A stretch of DNA of 64,000 bases from Corallococcus interemptor (lineage in GTDB: Bacteria; Myxococcota; Myxococcia; Myxococcales; Myxococcaceae): the NCBI RefSeq assembly GCF_003668875.1, contig NZ_RAWM01000039.1:2394-66393 (forward strand), in the 5' to 3' direction. The stretch's first letter is position 1. Each line of letters starts with the position of its first letter. The notes under the pieces are model-generated. The model saw only the letters and a list, made by a program, of their open reading frames with translations. It was not told where the DNA came from and did not search any database. A program made the translations under genes and the position numbers. Below, one piece after another: positions 1,225 to 27,666 of the stretch.

Positions 1225-3069
<1,845 letters not shown>

Positions 3070-3256
3070 GGCCACTCCTGCGTAGGGGCTCGCTGCCTGC
3101 CTGCTTCCCGCAGGGCGGGAAAAAGTAAGGGTCAGCGGCCCATGTGACGCAGGAAGTGTGGCGTCGCCTGATTTTTGAGTCAACCCAAGATGACACCCCG
3201 CGTTGACGAGCGGTCGAAGCCGCCCTTCTCGAACGCGGGATTTCGTCTTGGAACGC

Positions 3257-3961
3257 CTACTTCCTGGCCTTCTTCGCGGCCGGGAGCGACGCCGTCTTCG
3301 CGGCGGGCTTCTCCCGGGGGGCGGTCTTCTTGGACGAGGCGCCGGAGCGGGGCTCGTCCGACTCCTCGTCCTCCTCGTCGTCCTCGTCCCGGTCGCGCTC
3401 CGGGGCGGCGGGCGCCGGGGCGCTCGAGGCGGCCTCGGCGGAGGAGGCAGGGGCCGGGACGACCAGGCTCTCGCGGGGGACCTCCACCACGATGGGGGAC
3501 TGGCCGGAGCGCTGCCGGTTCTCGTCCTCCAGCGAGTAGAAGAGCTGGATCTGCGAGCCGCCCTTCATGACGAGCTCGCCCTTCTGGTTCTCCGCCCAGA
3601 GGTCGATTTCGACGAAGTACCGGCCGCCGGAGCCGTGGCGGTCGCTCACGCGGCCCTTGCAGACCACGGTGTCACCCGGCCACACCATCTTGATGAAGCG
3701 GACGTTGTAGCGCCGCAGCTGGCCGCCGCGGGCCCAGTCGCTGATGAGCTGGCCCAGCATGCCCATCACCAGCATGCCCGGGGCGTACACGGACGGCATC
3801 CCCACGCTCTTGGCGTAGATCTCGTCCACGTGCACCGGGTTGTAATCGCCGGAGGCGCCCGCGTAGCGCGACAGCTGGACGCGGTCCACCGGGGCCTTGG
3901 CCAGGGCCGGCAGCTCGTCACCGACGCGGATGGATTCGAAGTAGAGCTTGCGCGCGGGCAT
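3257..3961 (-). CDS. MaoC-like (R)-specific enoyl-CoA hydratase / hot-dog dehydratase with a Lys/Ala/Pro-rich acidic C-terminal tail
   Basis: Hot-dog fold motif (YAGASGDYNPVHVDEIYAKSVGMPSVYAPGML). Its ATG overlaps the stop of the upstream MaoC N-terminal-like gene (ATGA). It is in an operon with the acyl-CoA dehydrogenase. Confidence 0.8.
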   Translation of the reverse strand: MPARKLYFESIRVGDELPALAKAPVDRVQLSRYAGASGDYNPVHVDEIYAKSVGMPSVYAPGMLVMGMLGQLISDWARGGQLRRYNVRFIKMVWPGDTVVCKGRVSDRHGSGGRYFVEIDLWAENQKGELVMKGGSQIQLFYSLEDENRQRSGQSPIVVEVPRESLVVPAPASSAEAASSAPAPAAPERDRDEDDEEDEESDEPRSGASSKKTAPREKPAAKTASLPAAKKARK

Positions 3962-4410
3962 CAGGCGTTCTCCTTGGCGGCACGCACCACGAGGGTCCGG
4001 CGGGCGCGGAAGACGAGGTTGCCCTCTTCGTCCCGGCCTTCGTCCTCGATGACCGCGATGTCCATCTTGCCGGACATGCCCGGCCGCTCGAAGACGTCCG
4101 ACACGCGGGTGGACACGTAGATGCGGTCCCCCGCGAAGATGGGCCGCTCGTAGTCAAAGCCCTGCTCGGCGTGCAGCAGGCTCTTGATGCCCACCCCCAA
4201 CAGCTCCCGGAGGTCCGCGGCGGAATGGAACGACGCGGGAAACGTGGGCGGCGCGACGATGGTGGGGTAGCCCGAAGCGCGGGCGTACTCCTCGTCGTAG
4301 TAGATGGGATTGTAGTCGCCGATTGCCTCGGCGAAGCGCCGGATGGCGCCCTTCTCCACCTCGTTGAGCGTCGGCGGCGAGGCGCGGCCAATCGCGTTCT
4401 TGTCCAGCAT
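3961..4410 (-). CDS. MaoC N-terminal-like dehydratase subunit (hot-dog fold)
   Basis: 149 aa with a hot-dog-like sequence (GDYNPIYYDEEYARASGYPTIVAPPTF). It overlaps the downstream MaoC-like gene start, a pattern typical of two-gene split dehydratases. Confidence 0.75.
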   Translation of the reverse strand: MLDKNAIGRASPPTLNEVEKGAIRRFAEAIGDYNPIYYDEEYARASGYPTIVAPPTFPASFHSAADLRELLGVGIKSLLHAEQGFDYERPIFAGDRIYVSTRVSDVFERPGMSGKMDIAVIEDEGRDEEGNLVFRARRTLVVRAAKENA

Positions 4411-6817: not shown

Positions 6818-8915
6818 TCAGGGGGCGCGGGTGCCGACGATGACGTCGTCGATGACCGTGCCCTCCATGAGCGCGTCCACCACGTCCATGCCTTGAATCA
6901 CTTCACCGAAGGCCGTGTAGCGGCCGTCCAGGTGCGGCTGCGGTGAGTGCGTGAAGAAGAACTGGCTGCCCCCGGTGTCCTTGCCCGACAGCGCCATCCC
7001 CACCGTGCCCCGGGCGTATCGTCGGCGCGTCATCTCGCAGCGGATGGAGTAGCCGGGACCGCCCTCCCCGTCTCCGCGCGGGTCTCCGCCCTGCGCGACG
7101 AAGTCCGGCACCACGCGGTGGAAGGTGATGCCCCGGAAGTAGCCCTGCTTCGCGAGCGCCATCAGGTTGCCGCCCGTGAGCGGCGCGTCCGGATCCAGCA
7201 GGACGGTGATGTCGCCCTTGCGCGTGCGCAGCGTGAGCGTCGTGCCGGGAGGCGCGGCGGGCGGACGGTACGTCTCCGGAGGCAGCTCCACACGGGCGGA
7301 GCGGACCGGAGCGCCCGTGAGGGACGTGAGGGACTCGGCCGCGACCCGGCGCACGTTCGCGTGTGGATGCTTCAGCCATTCGCGCAGGCGCGGCTCCGCG
7401 GCCTTTCCCTGCAACGCGACGAGCGCGCCGGCCACCGCCTCCGCCAGGTCCGGCTCCTTGGGGACGCGGTCGGCCAGGGCCTCCAGCGCGGGCAGGGCCT
7501 CGGCGTCCTTCAGCTTGCCGGCGGCGGCCGCGGCGAGCCCCGCCACCACCGCGTCACCGCCTCCAATGAGCGCGCGAATGGGCGCCATCGCTTCGGGCAC
7601 GGGGCGTTCGGAGAGGGCGTCCAGCGCGGCGCCGCGCACGATGGGGCTCACGTGGTTCAGGTAGGGCACCGCGAACGCGGCGCCGGTGGGCTGTCCCTTG
7701 AACTGCGCGACCTCATGCAGTCCCAATGCGAGCCAGCGGGCTTCGGGGACGCGGCCGAAGCCACACTCGCGGACCTGATCCAGCGTGCCCTGCTGCCGGT
7801 CCATCGCCGCCGCGATCCGGCAGTCGAGCCACGCCAGGTCCGCGTGGGCTTCTTCCGTGGCCGCGCTCCGGTCGGCCTCCGCGAACGCCTTCCTCCAGCT
7901 CACGAACACGGGCCGGCCCTGGAGCGGGAGTCCCTGCTGCGCCACCGCCAGGAACAGGTGGCCCTGTGCGGCCCTTCCCTCCGCCACCTGCTTCGCCAGG
8001 GGCACCCGGCTCTCCAGGGCGATGAGCGGGGCGCAAGGCGCACCGGCCTCGCACTTCGCCGCCAGCTTCGCCAGCGCGCGCGCTGCCTCCGCCGACACGC
8101 GGAACTCAGGTCCGCCCAGCATCAGATGCAGCGAGGTCGTGTCCCGCGGGCTGCCCACGTCGCCCAGGCCCTTCGCGCAGAGGGCCCTCGCATCCGGATG
8201 CGCGTTGGCCAGACAGGACCCGAGCGCCTCCACGGCATCCAGCCGCTTCGACGCCGCGAGGAGGTACGCCCCGGCGACGTTCACCTCGCTCCGCAAGCGG
8301 GGATCCAGCAGCGCGCGGATCGTCTCCAGGGGGACGTTCGCCACGGCCGCGGGCCCGGCCTTGCGCGCAGCCACGCCCAGCGCCGTCGCCGCGGCCTCGG
8401 ACCAGGGGCCATTGGCCGGAGAAAGCCGGGCCGTCAGCACCTCCACGGCGCCAGGCGTGGCCAGCTTGCCCAGGGACTCCAGCAGCGTGTCGTGCACCCG
8501 GGCGTAGGCTTCCGAGGCCTCGGCGCGCACCAGCGCTTCCGTGAGCGCCGTCCGTGCCTCCTCCGGCAGCGGCTCCCAGGACTGGGCCAGCTCCCCCGCC
8601 GCGAAGGCGGCTTCTTCGCGCACGGCATTGCGCGGCGCCGTCAGCCCGACGAGGACGGCCTCCAGCGTCGCCACGTCCTGGATGCGCGCCAGGGCCCGGA
8701 GGGCGCGCACGCGCACGGCCCAATCCCGCGCGGAGGTGGCGAGCCGCACCAGCTCGCCGTCTCCCAGCGAGCGGCGGTCCTCCCAGTCCTGGATCCGCTC
8801 GATGAGCTGTGCGGGCGACTCCTGGGGCGGAGGCACGTCGGGCGTCGGCACCGAGCGCACACAGGCGCTCACGAGGAGGAATCCGGCGGACACGGCGGCG
8901 GGCAGGCGGGCCATG
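6818..8915 (-). CDS. Lipoprotein with HEAT/PBS-lyase-like repeats fused to a C-terminal cyclophilin-type peptidyl-prolyl cis-trans isomerase
   Basis: The C-terminus has a cyclophilin signature (GYFRGITFHRVVPDFVAQGGDP...GTVGMALSGKDTGGSQFFFT). The N-terminal about 500 aa are Ala/Leu-rich HEAT-like repeats. The start was placed at the ATG at 8915 (MARLPAAVSAGFLLVSAC, lipobox-like). Confidence 0.75.
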
Positions 8916-21459: not shown

Positions 21460-22113
21460 TCAGTGGATGGGCTTGCCGCGCGTCAGCTTCCGGGCCTGAT
21501 CGCGCGAGCCGCCCTTCACCTCGATGCGTTTGCCCTGCACTTCCGCTTCCGGAAGCTTGAGGGAGATCTCCAGCACGCCGTTCTCGAAGTTCGCGTGGAC
21601 GGACTCCGTGTCGATGCCCTCCGGAATCGGGATGGCGCGGCGGAAGACACCGCTGCTGCGCTCCAGGCTCCAGATGCCTTCGGCCTCCTCTTCCTGCTCC
21701 ACCTCGAACGAGCGCTCGCCCTCAATCACGAGCAGGTCCTTCAGCAGCTCCACGTGGATGTCCTCCTGCCGCATCCCTGGCAGGTCGGCCTTCACGATGA
21801 GGTTTCCGTTCCGCTCCAGCACGTCCACCTGCGGGGACCAGAGCCCTTCGGCCAGCCCGGCACTCCCAGGAGTGAAGCCCCGGCCACCGAAGCCGGTGAA
21901 GAGCTGATCCATGTCCTCCATCATCCGGCGCAGCAGCCCGAATGGGCTCATGGGCACGGCTGGCGTGGTGGACTCGCGGCGGCTGATGCCCGTGGAGCCG
22001 GTCCGGGGCTCCTGCTGCGAGGCGGTGCCCTGCATGCCGGCCTGGGCGTTCTTCGCCACGGGCGAGGCGGAGGGCTCTCCCTGCGCCCCCGGGTTCCTGT
22101 TGTCGGTTGCCAT
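21460..22113 (-). CDS. Hsp20/alpha-crystallin family small heat-shock protein
   Basis: Alpha-crystallin domain (WSPQVDVLERNGNLIVKADLPGMRQEDIHVEL...GVLEISLKLP) with a disordered Gln/Gly-rich N-terminus. Confidence 0.85.
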   Translation of the reverse strand: MATDNRNPGAQGEPSASPVAKNAQAGMQGTASQQEPRTGSTGISRRESTTPAVPMSPFGLLRRMMEDMDQLFTGFGGRGFTPGSAGLAEGLWSPQVDVLERNGNLIVKADLPGMRQEDIHVELLKDLLVIEGERSFEVEQEEEAEGIWSLERSSGVFRRAIPIPEGIDTESVHANFENGVLEISLKLPEAEVQGKRIEVKGGSRDQARKLTRGKPIH

Positions 22114-22263
22114 GACGTCCTCCCCCGATGGAGCCCGGCTGGCGCCCGGCCGCCGGACCGCACCGGTGACTCAAGCGGGGATGGAATTATCCCAACCCCA
22201 AACCTGGGAGTGCTCGGGAGAGCCCACAAGGGTCCGGGGCGTCCGACATGGGCTTGAGCCCCG

Positions 22264-23151
22264 CTACGCGAGCAGCGTGGCCTCCATCACGGTGAGGGCC
22301 ACGCCACCCACGCGGGCGCGCTCGACGTGGCCGGGCCGGCCGGTGACCTGGATGTCGATGCGGCCCGGCTTGCCGAGCGTGTCTCCCTGCTCGATGCGGC
22401 TGGACACGGTGCCGCCCTGCTCCGGCAGGCGGAGGCTCCCGTGCTCGGCGAGGTAGGCCGCCAGAGGGCCGGCGGCGGAGCCCGTCACGGGGTCCTCCAG
22501 GATGCCGAACCCCGGGACGAAGTAGCGGGCCTGGGCCGCGCTCCCCTCCTCCTTCGCCTCGCGGGTGAAGAGGTAGACGCCGCGCAGGCCGTGCGGCATC
22601 AGCAGCGCGTTCATCGCCGCGCCCCGAGGCGTCAGCGCCTCCAGGTCCGCGAGCCGCCGCAACGGCACCACCAGCCGGTGCCCCTGGCGGATCACCGGCA
22701 GTGACGGGTCCACCTGGGACGCCGTCCCGCCCAGCGTGGCCATCAGCGCCTCCAGCGCCACGGGGCTCGGCTGCGAGGGCGGAGGCGGCGTGGCAATCCA
22801 CACCCGGCTGCCCCGCGAGCCCTGGGGCTCCAGTTCGATCTCGAAGGTGCCGCCGGGGCACTCCAGCGTGTACGTCCCCGGGCTGCGCAGGAGCCCCTTC
22901 TCCGCGAGCAGGTGGAAGCTGGCCACGGTGGCATGGCCGCAGAAGGGAATCTCATCCACGGGCGTGAAGTAGCGCAGGCGCACGGTGGAATCGCCGGGCC
23001 GGGACAGGAGGAACGCGGTCTCCGACGCGCTGACGGCCGCGGCGGTCCGCTGCATGGTGGGGACATCCAGCGCCGAGGCGTCGAGCACCACGCCCGCGCG
23101 GTTCCCGGCACCGGCGGTGCGGGTGAAGGCATCGATGATGTGGACCTGCAT
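22264..23151 (-). CDS. PhzF-family phenazine-biosynthesis-like isomerase
   Basis: PhzF signature at the N-terminus (IIDAFTRTAGAGNRAGVV) and (DEIPFCGHATVASFH). 295 aa. Confidence 0.85.
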   Translation of the reverse strand: MQVHIIDAFTRTAGAGNRAGVVLDASALDVPTMQRTAAAVSASETAFLLSRPGDSTVRLRYFTPVDEIPFCGHATVASFHLLAEKGLLRSPGTYTLECPGGTFEIELEPQGSRGSRVWIATPPPPSQPSPVALEALMATLGGTASQVDPSLPVIRQGHRLVVPLRRLADLEALTPRGAAMNALLMPHGLRGVYLFTREAKEEGSAAQARYFVPGFGILEDPVTGSAAGPLAAYLAEHGSLRLPEQGGTVSSRIEQGDTLGKPGRIDIQVTGRPGHVERARVGGVALTVMEATLLA

Positions 23152-23287
23152 GGGCGGACTCCGGACGGGGCAAGGGCCAGTGGAACGGCGCAGGCATGCT
23201 CCGCTCCACCGCCGCCGTCAAGCGGTGGACCCACGTGCCGGCGAGGCACAGAACGGGGTTGAACGAGAGCGCCCGAGCAGGCACAGC

Positions 23288-24070
23288 ATGCGCATGGGTC
23301 TCCTGAAGTCCGGTGGGTGGGTGGTGCTGGTGGTGTTGCTCCACGCGAGCGGCGCGGCGGCACAGATCGTCAACGTGCAGGCGCTCTTCGACGAGAAGGC
23401 GGAGCTGGGGCCGGCCGCGGCCATCGAGCTGGGCGGCGACTGGCGCACGGGCAGCACGCAGCTGTTCTCCATCCGGGGCTCGCTGGTGGGCCAGCTGCGC
23501 TCCGAGCGGAACGTCTGGCTGGGCGTCATCCGGGGCGAATATTCATTCGCGACGGGCGAGCGCATCGTCAGCCAGGTGATGGAGCACGTGCGCTACCGGC
23601 GCCGGTTCACCGACCGGGTGTCGGGGGAGGTCTTCGCCCAGCACGAATACAACGAGTTCCGCCGGCTCCAGCTCCGGGCCCTGCTGGGAGCGGGTCCCCG
23701 TTTCGTCCTGTTCAACGAAGAGAGCACGGGGCTCACTTTCGGTGTGGCGCTGATGGTGGAGCACGAGCGGCTGCGCAAGGACGGAGAACCGGACGCGGGA
23801 GACCGCTACACGGTTCCACGCGTCTCCAGCTATCTGCTGGGCCGGGTGAAGCTGATGGAGAACATCAACCTCGTGGAGACGGTCTACCTCCAGCCAAGAG
23901 TCACCCGTCCCTCCGACCTGCGAGTGCTCAACGAGACGCTGTTCGCGGTGACGCCCAATCCCCGGGTCACGGTAGGCATTGGCTTCAACCTCACCTACGA
24001 CAGCGCACCGCCCGCGACGGTGCCGCCACTGGACACGCAAGTGCGCACCACCGTGGGGGTGAAGCTCTGA
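23288..24070 (+). CDS. Secreted/outer-membrane hypothetical protein (DUF481-like beta-barrel candidate)
   Basis: Signal peptide (MRMGLLKSGGWVVLVVLLHASGAAAQ). Alternating beta-strand-like pattern ending with an aromatic residue near the C-terminus. Confidence 0.55.
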   Translation: MRMGLLKSGGWVVLVVLLHASGAAAQIVNVQALFDEKAELGPAAAIELGGDWRTGSTQLFSIRGSLVGQLRSERNVWLGVIRGEYSFATGERIVSQVMEHVRYRRRFTDRVSGEVFAQHEYNEFRRLQLRALLGAGPRFVLFNEESTGLTFGVALMVEHERLRKDGEPDAGDRYTVPRVSSYLLGRVKLMENINLVETVYLQPRVTRPSDLRVLNETLFAVTPNPRVTVGIGFNLTYDSAPPATVPPLDTQVRTTVGVKL

Positions 24071-24528
24071 CACGCGTCCCCCACCGGCGGAGGCGGTCCA
24101 GAAGCGAGCACCTCCTCCCAAAGTCCGAAGCAGATGCTCCCCAGTTGGTCCAGGTCCCGCTTGGAGGCCCGGGTGCAGCAGTCGGACAAGAGCTCCACCA
24201 GCACCTGCCGCCGGAGGCTGAAGTAGCCCTCCAGGAGCCACCGGGCGTCAGGCGAGCGCATGTCATGCAGCGCCAGGCCCAGGTTCTCCAGCGTCAGCGA
24301 CTCATCCAACGGCACCGCGCGCGTCTTGCGTCCAGGCCGCTGCACCACCACGCCCCGCGCCGCCAGCCTCCGCAGCGCCTCACGGATGGTGCCCCGGCAG
24401 ACGTCATAGTGCCGCGCCAGCTTCGCTTCCGAGCCGAACTGCCCGCTCGGGTGAATCCGTCCCAGCGCGATGTCGCGCTCAATCTGTGCTTCCACGTACG
24501 CCACGAGCCCGCCGTGCCCCATCCCCAT
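23995..24528 (-). CDS. GntR-family transcriptional regulator (short, N-terminal wHTH)
   Basis: GntR HTH (LARHYDVCRGTIREALRRLAARGVVVQRPGRKT). Start set at the ATG at 24528. Its 3' end overlaps the preceding gene by 75 nt. Confidence 0.6.
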   Translation of the reverse strand: MGMGHGGLVAYVEAQIERDIALGRIHPSGQFGSEAKLARHYDVCRGTIREALRRLAARGVVVQRPGRKTRAVPLDESLTLENLGLALHDMRSPDARWLLEGYFSLRRQVLVELLSDCCTRASKRDLDQLGSICFGLWEEVLASGPPPPVGDACQSFTPTVVRTCVSSGGTVAGGALS

Positions 24529-24608
24529 TCCCCTTCCTCGTCCCAGCATCGCCATCCAACCACAGGGGTCTGACATGGACGCGCGAGGCTCCCCTCCGGA
24601 GCCGGACG

Positions 24609-24640
24609 AAAAAAACCTGTCCGACTGTCGGACAGGTTTT
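24609..24640. repeat. Palindromic repeat copy 1: A7-CCTGTCCGAC-T-GTCGGACAGG-T4 (perfect 10-bp arms)
   Basis: Read directly from the sequence. First of three related copies in the 440-bp GntR/proC intergenic region. Confidence 0.8.
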
Positions 24641-24706
24641 GAGGGAACCACACCGGTGCGGGCGCCTCTGCGCATGACCCGGGCCCTGGTGTCCGCTCGA
24701 TTCGGC

Positions 24707-24737
24707 GAAACCTGTTTGTTCGTCGGACAGGTTCTGA
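24707..24737. repeat. Palindromic repeat copy 2 (degenerate left arm): gaaaCCTGTttgttcGTCGGACAGGttctga
   Basis: Shares the gaaa-CCTGT...GTCGGACAGG-TT(C/T)TGA frame with copy 1. Confidence 0.7.
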
Positions 24738-24841
24738 TCCATCCCACCCGGTGGGCGGCGCTGCCCGTGGCCCTACTTGGGCCCTTCGATAGGCACCCCA
24801 TCACTCCCACCGCTTCGCGCGCTCAATCCAATCGTTTTGAT

Positions 24842-24873
24842 GAAAGCCTGTCCGACTGCCGGTCGGGTTTGGG
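24842..24873. repeat. Palindromic repeat copy 3 (degenerate right arm): gaaagCCTGTCCGACTGccggtcgggtttggg
   Basis: Shares the left arm and flanks with copy 1. Confidence 0.7.
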
Positions 24874-24967
24874 ATTTGCGTCCTCGGAACGTGGCACCGC
24901 TTGAGCCCCGTTGTGCTCCACCTGGCTTGGGCAACGGATGGTGGCTTCCTGGGGGTAGGATTCAGGG

Positions 24968-25819
24968 ATGGCGCTCCATCCCGTTCCCTCCCCTGTCGCC
25001 CTGCTGGGTGGTGGCAAGATTGCCGAAGCCCTGATCCAGGGACTGCTGCGCTCCGGCCTCGTGCGTCCTTCGGACGTTCGCGTCACCGTTCGCCGGTCTG
25101 AACGCGGAGAGGCGCTGCGCTCCCGGCACGGCGTGCACGTCCTCATGGACAACGCGCAGGCGGTGCGGGGCGCGGGAGTGGTCCTGCTGGCGGTGCGGCA
25201 AGCTCAGCTGCGGGACCTGATGGCCGTCATCTCGCCGGCCCTGGCGCCCGGGCAGACCGTGGTGTCGCTCTCCGCGGATGTCCGGCTTGCCCAGTTGGAG
25301 GCGGCGCTGCCTTCCTTTGTTTCAGTCATTCGCGCCATGCCCCACACACCCGTGCGCGTGGGCGCGGGTGTGACGCCGCTGACCGCTGGAACCCGGGTGA
25401 TGGAGGCAGCGAAGCGCGCAGTGGAGTCTGTCTTCGCCGCGACGGGCCAGCCGCTGTGGATGTCCGAAGAAGCCCTGACCGTGTGCACGGGCGTGTCCTG
25501 CACGGGGCCCGCGTATGTCTTTCGATTCGTGGAAGCCCTGGCCCAGGCCGCGGTGGCGCATGGAATGGACGCGGCGGAGGCGGCGGCGCTCGCCAAGGGC
25601 ACGCTCATTGGCGCGGCGAAACTGCTGGCCGAACCTGATGCCGCGACTCCTCGCCTCATCGCGGAGATCGCCACCCCGGGCGGCATCACCGAAGCGGGGT
25701 TGCTGGCGATGGAAGCCGAAGGACTTCCCCGCGTCGTGGGCGAGGCAGTCTCCGTCGCCATCCAACGCACACGCGAGCGCGCCGACGCGAACGCCGCCGC
25801 CTACAGCACGCCGAAGTGA
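24968..25819 (+). CDS. proC: Pyrroline-5-carboxylate reductase
   Basis: Motifs ALLGGGKIAEALIQGLL and the ProC C-terminal dimerisation region (ATPGGITEAGL). 283 aa. Confidence 0.85.
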   Translation: MALHPVPSPVALLGGGKIAEALIQGLLRSGLVRPSDVRVTVRRSERGEALRSRHGVHVLMDNAQAVRGAGVVLLAVRQAQLRDLMAVISPALAPGQTVVSLSADVRLAQLEAALPSFVSVIRAMPHTPVRVGAGVTPLTAGTRVMEAAKRAVESVFAATGQPLWMSEEALTVCTGVSCTGPAYVFRFVEALAQAAVAHGMDAAEAAALAKGTLIGAAKLLAEPDAATPRLIAEIATPGGITEAGLLAMEAEGLPRVVGEAVSVAIQRTRERADANAAAYSTPK

Positions 25820-26484
25820 CGCTTGAGCCCCCGCTGGCCTCCGGGAGTGACGATGAGGCCTCGGGAATCGGGCTGACGCTCCACCCACCCCAGCGAGAAC
25901 ACCCGGGCGGCGAGCGCCGCGCCCAGTGCTCCCGCGAGGTGATCGCGCCGCTCGCTCCAGTCCAGACACCGGTGGGCGAAGTGGCGCCGCTGTTCGCGCA
26001 CGGACGACAGGTCGATGCCGAAGTCCTGGCACCACGCCTCGCCGCTGGGGGTCAGCACGAACGCGCGTCGGCGCAGGGAGAGGTGGCCAGACCGGAGGAG
26101 CGCGTCGGTGATGCCCATGCCCAACCGGCCCGCCAGATGGTCGTAGCAATAGCGCGCGGCCCGCAGAGGCTCGGGGGCCGCTGACGCTCGGGGGCCCCGG
26201 ACCGCCACGGTCATCAGCGCTTCCACCATCCGCGCCACGGTGGGCGTCGCGAGCCGGAACACCTTGTTGCGCCCCTGCCGGGTGGCGCGAATCAGCCGCG
26301 CCTGCTCCAGACGCTGGAGGTGCGCGGTCGCCGTCGCGGGACTGACGCCCGTGCCGAACGCGAGTTCCTTGGCGACGAGCGCCCGCCCCTCCATGAGGAG
26401 CTCCAGCATCCGGATCCGCGTGGCGTCCCCCACGGCTCCAGCCAACATCGTGAGGTCCGGTCCTGCATTCATCGTTCGCTCCAT
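25801..26484 (-). CDS. ArsR/SmtB-family transcriptional regulator with C-terminal extension
   Basis: ArsR HTH (RIRMLELLMEGRALVAKELAFGTGVSPATATAHLQRLEQARLI). Start set at the ATG at 26484. Divergent from the P450 gene. Confidence 0.7.
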   Translation of the reverse strand: MERTMNAGPDLTMLAGAVGDATRIRMLELLMEGRALVAKELAFGTGVSPATATAHLQRLEQARLIRATRQGRNKVFRLATPTVARMVEALMTVAVRGPRASAAPEPLRAARYCYDHLAGRLGMGITDALLRSGHLSLRRRAFVLTPSGEAWCQDFGIDLSSVREQRRHFAHRCLDWSERRDHLAGALGAALAARVFSLGWVERQPDSRGLIVTPGGQRGLKRHFGVL

Positions 26485-26547
26485 GGCGAACCATTTCCTA
26501 GCACACCTCGCCAGTTCTGGCGGCAGAGTGCCCAGCCACGAGGACCG

Positions 26548-27666
26548 ATGACACCGCCCACCGACCCGTACCAGGCCGTCACCCACCCCGACCCATACCC
26601 GTACTACGCGCAGCTTCGCGCCCGGGGCGGACTGCACCGCGTCCCTGGCTTCGGCCCCTGGATCGCGGCGGATGCGGCCACCGTTCGCGCCGTGCTTTCC
26701 AGCGAGCATTGCCGCGTCCGGCCCCGCGCGGAGCCGGTGCCTCCGCACCTGGTGGGCACCGCCGCCGGGGCGCTGTTTGGACGGCTGGTGCGGATGAACG
26801 ACGGCGGCCCCTTCCCTACCGTGAAGGAGACCCTGTCGCGCACGCTGACGGAGGCGCTGCGGGAGGTGCAGTTGGAGAGCCATCGCCAGGCGGCCCGGCT
26901 GTTCGCGAAGCCGTCGCTGTCACGGCTGCCAGACGCAGCGCTCCAACTTCCCGTGCTCGTGCTGGGGTCTCTGCTGGGCTTCCCGGAAGACACCCTGGAA
27001 GCGAGCGTGCAGGACGTGGATGCCTATGTCCGCTCGGTCGCCGGCCCACCTGTGCGCAGCGAAGGCGCGGCGAGGCTGCACGCGCGCGTGGCGGACTGTT
27101 TCCGGTCAACCGCGCGGACTGCGTTCACTGCCGGGCTCATGGCAGGCCCTGGTCCAGAGGACCTGCGCGTCCCCAACGCCGTGGGCCTGCTCACCCAGGC
27201 CTATGAAGCGACGGCCGGGCTCCTTGGAGCGACGCTGCGGGCCTTCGCTCGTGAGCCCTCGCTGCGGGAACAGGTCTCACGGGGCGAGTGCTCGCTCGAT
27301 GACGTGGTCCAGGAAGCGGCCCGGCACGATGCCCCGGTCCAGAACACGCGGCGCTTCACCCACTCGGCCGCGACGGTCGCGGGCGTCGAGTTGGAAGCAG
27401 GAGCGACCGTGGTCGTCGTGCTCGCCGCCGCGAACCGGGATCCCCTGGTGAATCCCCAGCCCGACACCTTCCTGCCACGCCGTGCGGGCCGGCAGACCTT
27501 CACCTTCGGCCTGGGCGCGCATGCCTGTCCCGGGCCGCTGGTGGCGACGGCGATGGCCTCGGCGGCGGCGGCACGGGTGCTCGCGAGCGGCCTGGACCTG
27601 ACGCCGCTGGCGGGCCCCGTCACCTGGCGTGCTTCCACCAACACCCGCGTCCTGGGAGGACCGTGA
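26548..27666 (+). CDS. Cytochrome P450
   Basis: Heme-binding loop FGLGAHACPG and an ExxR-like region. Start at the ATG at 26548 (MTPPTDPYQAV). Confidence 0.85.
   Translation: MTPPTDPYQAVTHPDPYPYYAQLRARGGLHRVPGFGPWIAADAATVRAVLSSEHCRVRPRAEPVPPHLVGTAAGALFGRLVRMNDGGPFPTVKETLSRTLTEALREVQLESHRQAARLFAKPSLSRLPDAALQLPVLVLGSLLGFPEDTLEASVQDVDAYVRSVAGPPVRSEGAARLHARVADCFRSTARTAFTAGLMAGPGPEDLRVPNAVGLLTQAYEATAGLLGATLRAFAREPSLREQVSRGECSLDDVVQEAARHDAPVQNTRRFTHSAATVAGVELEAGATVVVVLAAANRDPLVNPQPDTFLPRRAGRQTFTFGLGAHACPGPLVATAMASAAAARVLASGLDLTPLAGPVTWRASTNTRVLGGP

Follow-up and report, generated by a model that had tools for sequence, protein, structure and literature searches.

Three palindromic elements lie between the start of a GntR-family regulator gene and proC in Corallococcus interemptor, and the question raised by this locus is whether they are operators of the adjacent regulator, members of a dispersed repeat family or part of a structured RNA. 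In the window, by which we mean the whole stretch of 64,000 nucleotides that was analysed, they are probably the surviving array units of a decayed and immobilised copy of a cassette, present many times in Corallococcus, that combines a regulator gene with operator-like sites. The features concerned are collected in Table 1.

Table 1. Features at the DUF481-proC locus, in coordinates of the window
Feature	Position	Strand	Evidence or remark
DUF481 outer-membrane-type gene, flanking, outside the element	23288..24070	+	PF04338 on orthologues
Inserted block, 881 bp, decayed GntR cassette copy	24071..24951	-	Synteny breaks, junction alignments
Tentative 3' terminal-repeat remnant GGAGGCGGTCCAGAAGCGAGCAC	24089..24111	+	Alignment to left junctions of EGB and C. 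carmarthensis
FadR/GntR-family regulator gene, 5' part of ~138 codons, 3'-truncated	24108..24528	-	Pfam, paralogue alignment
Invariant leader box CCATGTCAGACCCCTGTGGTTGGATGG	24552..24578	-	Third GTC-n-GAC core (GTCAGAC); in-frame upstream ATG at 24574-24576
Copy 1	24612..24640	-	Perfect palindrome AAAACCTGTCCGAC-A-GTCGGACAGGTTTT in minus-strand reading; both GTC-n-GAC boxes intact
Copy 2	24708..24735	-	gaaaCCTGTTTGTTCGTCGGACAGGttctg at 24707-24736; left arm degenerate; sole surviving box GTCGGAC at 24722-24728
Copy 3	24844..24870	-	gaaaGCCTGTCCGACTGCCGGTCGGGtttgg at 24842-24872; right arm degenerate; sole surviving box GTCCGAC at 24850-24856
Tentative 5' terminal-repeat remnant	24930..24951	-	Alignment to EGB only
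proC (pyrroline-5-carboxylate reductase), flanking, outside the element	24968..25819	+	Pfam P5CR_dimer, F420_oxidored

A re-reading of the sequence confirmed the three copies of the preliminary description, one perfect and two half-degenerate, and the genes that it had placed on either side were borne out by matches to the GntR winged-helix (PF00392) and ProC domains. On the plus strand copy 1 is laid out as A7 (24609-24615), CCTGTCCGAC-T-GTCGGACAGG (24616-24636) and T4 (24637-24640), and a repeat finder assigned it arms of 14 nt each, 100% complementary and separated by a gap of 1 nt. When up to 3 mismatches were tolerated the palindrome pattern matched twice in the 64 kb, against 0.02 matches expected, and copy 3 matched it with 3 mismatches. 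The copies are palindromic as described, but the length of ~30 bp first given to the repeat was too short, the direct repeat actually extending over 46 nt (identity 72% and 63%, spacings 95 and 136 nt), and the short open reading frames of the KTCPTVGQV type are, as had been supposed, repeat DNA in translation. The motif TGTCNGAC is locally clustered, 7 of its 16 sites in the window falling inside 24181-24856. Alignment shows all three to be units of a ~137-nt repeat that recurs in arrays elsewhere: copies 2 and 3 correspond in the alignment to the second and third units of a ~137-nt upstream array like those of loci L152 and L151, while copy 1, 98 nt from the annotated GntR start, is the promoter-proximal palindrome of the cassette, homologous to the one at -100 to -130 in its other copies.

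The origin of the block that carries these copies is indicated by comparison with related genomes. Synteny with four other Corallococcus genomes is lost at 24068/24070 and regained at 24950/24952, so that the block is limited by the DUF481 stop codon (24068-24070) on one side and ends 16 nt ahead of the proC ATG on the other. C. caeni (15-bp intergenic) and C. praedator have nothing inserted at the orthologous site, and the DUF481 gene lies there directly upstream of proC with a gap of 15-18 nt; C. carmarthensis has one solo palindrome at this site and strain EGB a full element. The ProC protein of the window, for which a look-up by exact sequence returned no record, is 99% identical to that of Corallococcus sp. 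AB049A. As judged from these alignments, the block is inserted DNA without an ancestral connection to proC. Its ends may retain remnants of terminal repeats: the one towards proC lacks the outer ~11 nt that EGB keeps at the same junction, where the terminal repeat (L110, 3956-3985) reaches 14.8 bits and the background no more than ~6-8, and the one towards DUF481 abuts the point of gene truncation. Neither remnant was significant in a gapless matrix scan of the window for terminal repeats. The location of the sites in a divergent intergenic region, and a dyad resembling GntR-family operators, could suggest operators dedicated to this locus, by which the neighbouring GntR protein would regulate both its own gene and proC. 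This reading, which we regard as very unlikely, is already contradicted by the comparative data, as the block is missing from the two empty sites, the same gene-plus-palindrome module stands beside unrelated genes at no fewer than 24 further sites and the regulator of the window is truncated inside its effector domain.

The truncated gene belongs to a large family of paralogues. Its winged helix-turn-helix matches the Pfam GntR domain (PF00392) with an E value of 5e-12 (1e-13 in the paralogue at L036), and its frame stays open to 23995 through 39 unrelated codons. The protein is 70-85% identical to 20 paralogues over residues 1-138 only, blastn similarity spans 24108-24587, and full-length paralogues have ~245 conserved codons; the window copy is without its effector domain past about residue 138. 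Ahead of the gene, the leader box is invariant or nearly so in 12 aligned paralogue leaders and lies at -49 or -56 in all four paralogues picked regardless of the palindrome, and TGTCAGAC is found within the region of this box at 24568-24575. For full-length paralogues the Pfam FCD domain was matched with an E value of 0.011, below the Pfam cut-off; E. coli FadR aligns over residues 8-211, and structure prediction gives an all-helical region at residues 78-229 and a disordered tail. All 50 structural matches listed for this predicted fold belong to the GntR family, and nearly all to its FadR subfamily; the full-length paralogues are on sequence and predicted fold FadR-type two-domain regulators. 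They are annotated at 320-478 residues, the tails being disordered read-through of repeat DNA.

The homologues of the regulator form 357 clusters, and among the best 120 of these every named source is Corallococcus, next to a few metagenome entries; at least 15 paralogues are found on the chromosome of C. exercitus SDU142 alone. The paralogues are intact, with a median dN/dS of 0.37, a dS of 0.44 and zero stops over 245 codons, values that indicate purifying selection. Against this dS, 17 of 21 cassette copies carry the 21-nt palindrome without any mismatch, a conservation that could stem from recent spread or gene conversion and not from selection for binding.

Gene and palindrome keep a regular arrangement in the cassette. 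The palindrome lies ~100-130 nt upstream of the regulator start in 24 of the 25 copies examined, at 124-127 nt in 15 of 20 copies selected by the palindrome, and at 108-130 nt in all four paralogues selected by protein similarity alone; a second one stands at +900 to +1300 in 13 of ~18 copies, mostly inverted with respect to the first. Cassette units measure 1.5-1.7 kb and are bounded at both ends by terminal inverted repeats of 22-32 nt, which an independent tool detected in four elements (L090, L039, L079 and L095), one of them a gene-less mini copy of 187 bp; gene-less derivatives are known in two sizes, 187 and 407 bp. Two copies from the same genome (L013 and L079) are 94-98% identical and their similarity stops exactly at the repeat tips. 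The repeats have CAGGTCGCCAGAAGTTCGTTGAC-like ends, the youngest copies ending C-TA-AGTAGGT...ACCTACT-TA-G and older ones having TG, CA or CG in the place of the flanking TA. The units look mobile on the evidence of these sequences. No flanking direct repeat indicative of a target-site duplication was found at 7 elements, a TA within CTAG being possible in the youngest copy, and no cognate transposase or autonomous partner with matching ends was found among the sampled palindrome-bearing loci, in which the GntR regulator is the only multi-copy gene beside the palindrome. An IS630-type DDE_3 pseudogene in the EGB element was rejected as the cognate transposase, as it has 32-nt inverted repeats of its own and is absent from the other loci. 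When metagenomes were scanned for the terminal repeat, 36 single matches came up, which we attribute to chance because none came with a palindrome, a paralogue or a paired repeat.

The fixed positions of the palindromes inside both ends of the cassette, mostly in mutual inversion, also fit sub-terminal recognition sites for transposition, the FadR-like protein then being an accessory DNA-binding factor and not a conventional regulator. Mini elements, in which the terminal repeats and a palindrome are retained and the gene is lost, would agree with such a role, as would the fact that the regulator is the sole gene encoded by the cassette. However, most palindromes, solo or in arrays, have no terminal repeat nearby, the protein is predicted to have an ordinary FadR fold with a domain of the ligand-binding type, and the sampled loci yielded no transposase partner; we consider this role quite unlikely.

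Beyond the cassettes, the 21-nt palindrome was found in at least 107 stretches of 8 kb, with at least 147 perfect copies, in Corallococcus and related genomes, both solo and in arrays, the taxonomic range being likewise a minimum, and the small dispersed repeat family proposed in the preliminary description is thereby supported. It had also been reasoned that a motif with many copies would be a generic repeat and hence not an operator; the many copies exist, but the motif is both dispersed and operator-like. According to a rough, purpose-made gene caller, 63 of the 69 solo sites with genes called on either side are intergenic and 6 genic; among the intergenic ones those between convergent genes are enriched (24/63, against 21% expected) and those between divergent genes depleted (9/63), an orientation bias that is the pattern of REP-like elements and not of promoters. 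Perfect copies also occur in frame within NRPS genes. In one related metagenome-assembled genome 17 stretches bear the palindrome and none of them a paralogue, and a 70-nt hairpin with the palindrome at its tip is confined to metagenome-assembled copies (an uncultured deltaproteobacterium and Archangium bins). Of 115 pairs of neighbouring palindromes within 160 nt of each other, 98 agree in the central base and are therefore head-to-tail, and the dominant period is 65-74 nt; in the array of strain EGB two unit types alternate. Arrays with a period of 69-73 nt are not CRISPRs, because the stretches between the palindromes are themselves repeated. Searches of the literature for the palindrome sequence, for myxobacterial REP, RAYT or MITE elements and for a GntR expansion in Corallococcus returned nothing relevant.

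High copy number, a mostly intergenic location, the excess between convergent genes and the tandem arrays would all suit selfish REP- or REPIN-like hairpins, which a dedicated enzyme would spread in single-stranded form and which would act, if at all, as RNA or DNA hairpins (terminators or stabilisers of mRNA), with an incidental or hitch-hiking link to the GntR gene. Palindromes flank this gene as REPs flank RAYT genes (PMC3337134), copy 1 folds at about -19.5 kcal/mol, and in the related metagenome-assembled genome the palindrome forms the tip of the 70-nt hairpin. Stem pairing, however, is not seen to be maintained in diverged copies. Across its variants 15 compensatory pairs were observed against 17 +/- 3.7 under the null, the majority of changes (238 single ones) break pairing, and substitutions track the GTC-n-GAC boxes rather than a uniform stem. 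Complementarity ends at the 25-nt core, beyond which an extended hairpin with covarying outer arms was dismissed, the observed values being equal to those of a shuffled left/right control. Neighbouring copies are moreover head-to-tail and not inverted doublets, and no RAYT-like or other multi-copy gene was found in 0.9 Mb of palindrome-bearing DNA. A tblastn search of these ~0.9 Mb of sampled loci with E. coli RAYT gave nothing credible, although with the probe used this is a weak test; one faint match, in L064, is not a transposase gene. Taken as a whole, selfish hairpins appear an unlikely explanation.

Folding bears likewise on the proposal of a structured RNA, which was not upheld. Copy 1 is the only significantly stable copy (-19.8 and -19.3 kcal/mol, z -4.6 and -5.2), copies 2 and 3 folding no clearly better than shuffles (z -2.5 to -0.1); Rfam gave no match in the 64 kb at the gathering score, and nothing meaningful in 24300-25200 at E values up to 10. 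Copy 1 owes its look of a bidirectional terminator to a 13-bp hairpin after which, by eye, come T7 on the minus and T4 on the plus strand, but this is no feature of the family: the T7 run follows a 29-nt deletion, and other family members have no T run. A terminator scan of the window region and of one full-length leader reported none. A small RNA, a leader or attenuator, or an intrinsic terminator acting in both directions, for which the hairpin of copy 1 would be the main argument, is in view of these results and of the absent covariation extremely improbable.

Instead of the pairing of its stem, the palindrome conserves a pair of GTC-n-GAC boxes, which are the core element in operators of the FadR subfamily. 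In 152 variant palindromes the GTC and GAC triplets are seldom changed (2-11 changes each), while substitutions concentrate on the n in the middle of either box (32 and 30 changes). In the flanks T to G and A to C are the most frequent changes and shift the arms towards TGGTCnGACCA, a direction that matches AAnTGGTCnGACCAnTT, the box published for LldR of the FadR subfamily (PMC10272880). The two boxes are 8 bp apart, centre to centre, so that two FadR-like dimers could hardly share one palindrome. A sigma-70 promoter scan of the window region and of one full-length leader recognised no promoter. The best reading of these patterns is that the palindromes are probably binding sites for the regulators encoded by the cassettes. 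The earlier suggestion of an operator for the adjacent GntR protein is thus supported only in modified form, by a coupling of gene and palindrome throughout the family and by the FadR-type profile of the boxes, and not as something private to this locus, where the block is an insertion and the gene is truncated.

The history of the locus can be reconstructed along these lines. A complete cassette consists of one FadR-subfamily GntR gene in a unit of 1.5-1.7 kb bounded by terminal inverted repeats, with a perfectly conserved 25-nt palindrome ~100-130 nt upstream, sometimes multiplied to an array of 137-nt period, an invariant GTCAGAC box by the start and usually a second palindrome after the gene. 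One such cassette probably inserted between the DUF481 gene and proC, and in the lineage of the window it then shed the gene's 3' half together with the greater part of each cassette end. Each palindrome, composed of two overlapping FadR-type GTC-n-GAC dyads, would bind dimeric cassette regulators, which at the palindrome of their own cassette may lead to autoregulation in cis; since many paralogues exist, the same sites, including solo and array palindromes across the genome, may also attract regulators in trans. Both boxes survive in copy 1 and a single one in each of copies 2 and 3, and the three may thus be relics that paralogues elsewhere still bind. As to movement, our leading guess is that the cassettes would be mobilised in trans, by a transposase recognising the terminal repeats.

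A more speculative view, which we offer tentatively and hold to be unlikely, gives the FadR-like protein a part comparable to that of RAYTs for REPs or of the Myb-like ORF1 for PIF/Harbinger elements. It would be the element's own DNA-binding factor, recognising the palindrome and sharing in the copying or keeping of both cassettes and free palindromes; such a REP-like system would rely on a winged-helix regulator where others have an HUH transposase, and the whole would be a self-propagating module of transcription factor and operator that seeds a genus-wide and fast-evolving network of sites, including those inside NRPS genes.

The favoured reading, of a decayed regulator-plus-operator cassette, resembles several known systems without coinciding with any of those compared. 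BIMEs of enterobacteria are mosaic arrays of REP units, and like them the Corallococcus palindromes form regularly spaced arrays, with two alternating unit types in EGB; they differ in unit sequence and host range, in being directly oriented and in their association with a regulator gene. The ends of IS630 and Tc1-mariner elements are characterised by a TA duplication and CAGGT-type tips, and the tips of the youngest cassette copies would fit such a duplication in a CTAG target and repeat tips of this type; this is a resemblance only. Older copies depart from it at the TA positions, and the inverted repeats of the IS630-type pseudogene in EGB are of another kind. Among units that are bounded by inverted repeats, hold passenger genes or none, and are moved in trans are mobile insertion cassettes and 'transporter' insertion sequences. 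With these and with MITEs (reviewed in PMC10969869) the cassettes share terminal inverted repeats of 22-32 nt, the lack of an internal transposase gene, gene-less mini derivatives, unrelated contexts and insertion polymorphism; unlike them, they have no partner insertion sequence in the sampled loci and no clear target-site duplication, their passenger is always the same regulator with operator-like sites, and the sites far outnumber the cassettes.

The REP/REPIN-RAYT system (Bertels and Rainey; PMC3116915, PMC3337134, PMC5581495) is similar in its short palindrome with many mostly intergenic and often clustered copies, in a small gene typically flanked by the palindrome and in lineage-bound inheritance. 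The Corallococcus protein is, however, a winged-helix FadR/GntR regulator and not an HUH/Y1 transposase, and its gene is present at least 15 times per genome whereas RAYTs are single copy; the palindromes are head-to-tail, their stems show no excess of compensatory changes and the gene units possess terminal inverted repeats. With the FadR subfamily (E. coli FadR, LldR, NanR, McbR and DhdR; PDB 1hw1, 1h9t) the protein shares a winged helix and an all-helical effector domain, and the sites share the GTC-n-GAC dyad with a free central base, in paired boxes as in LldR (PMC10272880). Known members are single-copy chromosomal genes with a handful of operators, while in Corallococcus gene and site are amplified and dispersed, the boxes overlap in one 25-nt super-palindrome and the protein tails are disordered and repeat-derived.

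For annotation, these findings mean that the tails of the regulators should be read as repeat read-through and the window copy as a truncated relic, and that 881 bp of foreign DNA now stand between proC and the gene that used to precede it. They also offer a contrast for REP biology, in which the same architecture of a small gene, flanking palindromes and orphan copies is found with a different class of protein. Should the regulators indeed bind the palindrome beside their own genes, a transcription factor and its operator would amplify together as one mobile unit, and this would provide a direct route by which mobile DNA may rewire regulation in Corallococcus, a genus noted for predation and secondary metabolism.

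Reading of the window sequence bore out, positions included, the three palindromic copies that the preliminary description had placed between the GntR-family gene (start 24528, minus strand) and proC (start 24968, plus strand), and the observation is real and non-random: the 21-mer, at up to three mismatches, matched twice in the 64-kb window (G+C content 70%) against 0.02 matches expected. The repeated unit exceeds the estimate of about 30 bp, a repeat search stretching it to 46 nt; copies 1-3 align with units of about 137 nt from arrays in other genomes, and inside the window the family is confined to 24108-24873. That the element might be a dispersed repeat proved right, as an exact scan with one genome per species yielded at least 107 palindrome-bearing 8-kb stretches (numbered with L below) with at least 147 perfect copies. 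Among the matches listed nearly all stretches came from Corallococcus, and a few from Hyalangium, an Archangium metagenome-assembled genome (MAG), a Myxococcaceae MAG and a deltaproteobacterial MAG; by our own count from the locus list, the C. exercitus SDU142 chromosome has at least 38, spread over 0.9-9.0 Mb, and C. coralloides KYC2213 at least 15. The sequence AA-CCTGTCCGAC-N-GTCGGACAGG-TT is totally conserved, with conservation at background level outside it. Many copies form head-to-tail arrays (98 of 115 neighbouring pairs in the same orientation) with a period mainly of 65-74 nt and smaller peaks near 90 and 135; a CRISPR array was ruled out, the stretches between palindromes being themselves repeated. 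Flanks compared with the core masked gave three types, array (55 copies), GntR leader (22) and MAG (14), besides 36 singletons. In stretches of the deltaproteobacterial and Archangium MAGs that themselves hold no GntR paralogue, the palindrome is the tip of a hairpin of about 70 nt with about 30 of 49 positions complementary. Perfect palindromes also occur within NRPS genes, immediately ahead of the adenylation-domain motif LAYVIYTSGSTG(T/A)PKGV in C. coralloides and C. exercitus, where they translate as KPVRQSDRF or EPVRLSDRL, and in one case within a condensation-like domain in C. praedator; they may be 27-nt insertions or old conserved sites.

Features of the palindrome family, its cassettes and the DUF481-proC site
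Feature	Genome or locus	Position or size	Description
Copy 1	window	24609-24640	A7 / CCTGTCCGAC-T-GTCGGACAGG / T4; arms 14 nt, 100% complementary
Copy 2	window	24707-24736	single good arm kept
Copy 3	window	24842-24872	single good arm kept
Leader-box ATG	window (minus); L036	24574-24576; 3609	in frame with regulator ORF (MSDPSGWM...)
DUF481-proC site	C. caeni	15-bp intergenic region	empty
DUF481-proC site	C. praedator		empty
DUF481-proC site	C. carmarthensis	165 bp	one solo variant palindrome
DUF481-proC site	strain EGB		full-length regulator gene, palindrome, unrelated IS630-type pseudogene, seven-unit palindrome array
IS630-family transposase pseudogene	L110 (EGB)	2326-3329	Pfam DDE_3, E 5e-9
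Palindrome array	L110 (EGB)	3330-3720	alternating units ...GTCGGACACGTTCATGCCCCGGG... and ...GACTGTCCTACA(C/A)GTTCGCGGGC...; pair period ~100-150 nt
Terminal inverted repeats (independent tool)	L090	1490 bp	
Terminal inverted repeats (independent tool)	L039	1674 bp	
Terminal inverted repeats (independent tool)	L079	1665 bp	
Terminal inverted repeats (independent tool)	L095	187 bp	gene-less mini element
Paralogue tail	L062	~3580-4230	69-nt (23-residue) tandem repeats
NRPS palindromes	L082; L084; L077	~3849-3875; ~7355-7381; ~3255-3281	perfect, 25-27 nt, in frame
MAG hairpins	deltaproteobacterial: L006, L007, L012, L017, L023, L040, L078, L094, L098, L104, L105; Archangium: L063, L097		CCTCCCGGGCGCGcTTTTCAAAAACCTGTCCGAC-A-GTCGGACAGGTTTtTGAAAAGCGCGCCCGGGAGG

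The GntR gene beside the copies belongs to the repeat. When window 22000-27500 was compared with the palindrome loci by BLAST, over 20 of the loci contained a version of 24108-24587 (76-87% identity), and neither the DUF481 gene nor proC was repeated. The palindrome centre lies 124-127 nt upstream of the paralogue start in 15 of 20 loci; a 29-nt deletion brings it to 98 nt in the window. Of about 18 copies, 13 have a second palindrome, mostly in opposite orientation, 900-1300 nt past the start. Four paralogues (from C. macrosporus, C. caeni, C. exiguus and C. interemptor), for which protein similarity was the sole criterion of choice, all had an upstream palindrome at 108-130 nt, three canonical and one the variant CTGGTCCAAC-A-GTCGGACCAG (about 125 nt, read by eye), as well as the invariant leader box CCATGTCAGACCC at 49-56 nt, and two had upstream arrays with the 137-nt period of the window. 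A protein search gave 357 homologue clusters, at least 15 distinct ones on the SDU142 chromosome; the best 120 (E < 1e-102) were all from Corallococcus where the source was named, with a few metagenome entries. In an all-against-all BLAST, the repeated DNA of the 107 loci comprised only two classes, gene units and palindrome arrays, and no transposase-like gene.

Full-length paralogues have about 245 conserved codons and carry a GntR winged helix (PF00392) with a weak Pfam FCD match, and E. coli FadR aligns to a paralogue over residues 8-211. The structure predicted from 30 family members has a winged-helix domain, an all-helical domain to residue 229 and a disordered tail; all 50 structural matches listed from the PDB were GntR-family regulators, and nearly all belonged to the FadR subfamily (FadR, McbR, NanR, DhdR, VanR and PmiR included), with no nuclease or recombinase fold among them. 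The encoded protein is a bona fide FadR-subfamily member. The paralogues are functional genes, as they lack stop codons over 245 codons and have a median dN/dS of 0.37 at a median dS of 0.44. Past codon 245 the signal of coding weakens (GC at codon positions 1/2/3 of 0.77/0.59/0.73 vs. 0.76/0.48/0.86 in the core) and the open frame merely continues into repeat DNA, which accounts for the NLSDCRTG-type peptides in annotated products of 320-478 residues. The tandem repeats of one such tail (L062) each hold GCGTCAGACCTCCAGCAGG, a further GTCAGAC core like that of the leader box. The window regulator resembles the paralogues only to about residue 138, followed by 39 unrelated codons, and is a truncated relic. 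An ATG in the leader box shares the reading frame of the regulator, every indel between this ATG and the annotated start has a length divisible by three, and the box is invariant at third codon positions too; translation may begin 16-18 codons ahead of the PGAP start.

The cassettes look like mobile elements. Gene units are bounded by terminal inverted repeats of 22-32 nt (consensus roughly C(T/C)NRGCAGGTCGCCAGAAGTTCGTTGAC), and two SDU142 copies 4.5 Mb apart (L013 and L079) are 94-98% identical, their similarity stopping exactly at the repeat tips. Matches to the terminal-repeat matrix above 10 bits fell on gene units, units cut by the locus edge, the mini elements L095 and L057 and, in L004, a single gene-less end adjoining a palindrome, besides a handful of isolated weak ones (10-11 bits); free arrays and solo palindromes had none above 10 bits. 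IS630/mariner elements duplicate a TA target, and the ends of the youngest copy, C-TA-AG...CT-TA-G, would fit a TA duplication in CTAG, which is only a hint; target-site duplication was not found at the cassettes examined, nor a partner transposase in the sampled palindrome loci or in a metagenome scan for the terminal repeat. The C. carmarthensis (L001) and C. llansteffanensis (L090) cassettes abut the same gene, msrB-like by eye only, with its stop codon inside CTGAG at the cassette tip, and look like an orthologous insertion common to the two species.

At the DUF481-proC site, synteny with four other Corallococcus genomes ends at the DUF481 stop codon (24068-24070) and restarts at 24950-24952, 16 nt short of the proC ATG. 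The window, EGB and C. carmarthensis have homologous sequence at the left junction and at the right; a single insertion in their ancestor, with different internal deletions afterwards, is therefore the simplest history, and the empty sites were either never filled or precisely excised. The EGB terminal repeat scores 14.8 bits directly at the proC-side junction, and the two cassette ends of the window are weak remnants only. Species relationships were judged by ProC identity alone, a rough guide (window ProC shares 99% identity with the Corallococcus sp. AB049A protein). In empty-site species 15-18 nt separate the DUF481 stop from the start of proC, so that the two genes probably shared a transcript; the window has 881 bp of foreign DNA between them, which includes an antisense gene fragment as well as a strong hairpin. 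The EGB pseudogene, inserted inside the cassette, carries a frameshift and 32-nt inverted repeats of its own, and no other sampled locus contains it.

The palindrome could act as structured RNA or as a protein-binding site. Copy 1 folds at -19.8/-19.3 kcal/mol (z about -5 against shuffled sequence), but the structured-RNA option of the preliminary description was not supported: copies 2 and 3 folded little beyond shuffled sequence, Rfam gave no match in the 64-kb window or in a permissive search around the copies, and in 152-156 variants that differ from the palindrome at 1-5 positions, compensatory double changes were not in excess (15 vs. 17 ± 3.7 when arms of different copies were paired), most changes disrupting pairing. 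In these variants G6-T7-C8, G10-A11, G14-T15-C16 and G18-A19-C20 changed only 2-11 times each and the base between GTC and GAC 32 and 30 times in the two boxes, while the flanks changed most often from T5 to G (42) and from A21 to C (23), which gives arms TGGTC...GACCA. The box of LldR, of the FadR subfamily, AAnTGGTCnGACCAnTT, is likewise GTC-n-GAC with a free centre, TG before and CA after (PMC10272880). A third core, GTCAGAC, lies within the leader box; both boxes survive in copy 1, and one in each of copies 2 and 3; 7 of the 16 TGTCNGAC sites of the window fall within 24181-24856; and the palindrome is perfect in 17 of 21 gene units despite synonymous-site divergence of about 44%. Together, substitution profile, LldR likeness, site clustering and conservation favour recognition by a FadR-like dimer, for which the neighbouring encoded regulators are the obvious candidates. 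The proposal of operator sites for the adjacent regulator thus holds in spirit, through FadR-type boxes and regulator coupling, and not as a local site nor for proC, the copies being an insertion. Against an operator, by a rough gene caller of our own, solo sites are commoner between convergent genes (24/63 vs. 21% expected) and rarer between divergent ones (9/63), a placement that looks more REP-like than promoter-like; moreover, the two boxes, 8 bp apart, are too near for two dimers, none of the 17 palindrome-bearing stretches of one MAG holds a paralogue, and no promoter was recognized in the window region or a full-length leader.

A small gene flanked by its own palindrome with many orphan copies recalls REP/RAYT, from which the palindrome-GntR system departs on three defining points (PMC3337134): its palindromes lack inverted doublets, no HUH/Y1 gene occurs in the sampled loci, and the associated gene is multi-copy. 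The two-unit EGB array calls to mind the mosaics that BIMEs form in enterobacteria. Gene units resemble non-autonomous cassettes that carry a passenger gene between inverted repeats, and mini copies resemble MITEs. A literature search with partial journal coverage returned no paper with the palindrome sequence or such an expansion in Corallococcus. The regulator-palindrome system, whose mechanism we infer, is here called a combination of a mobile cassette and a FadR-type operator, both of known kinds.
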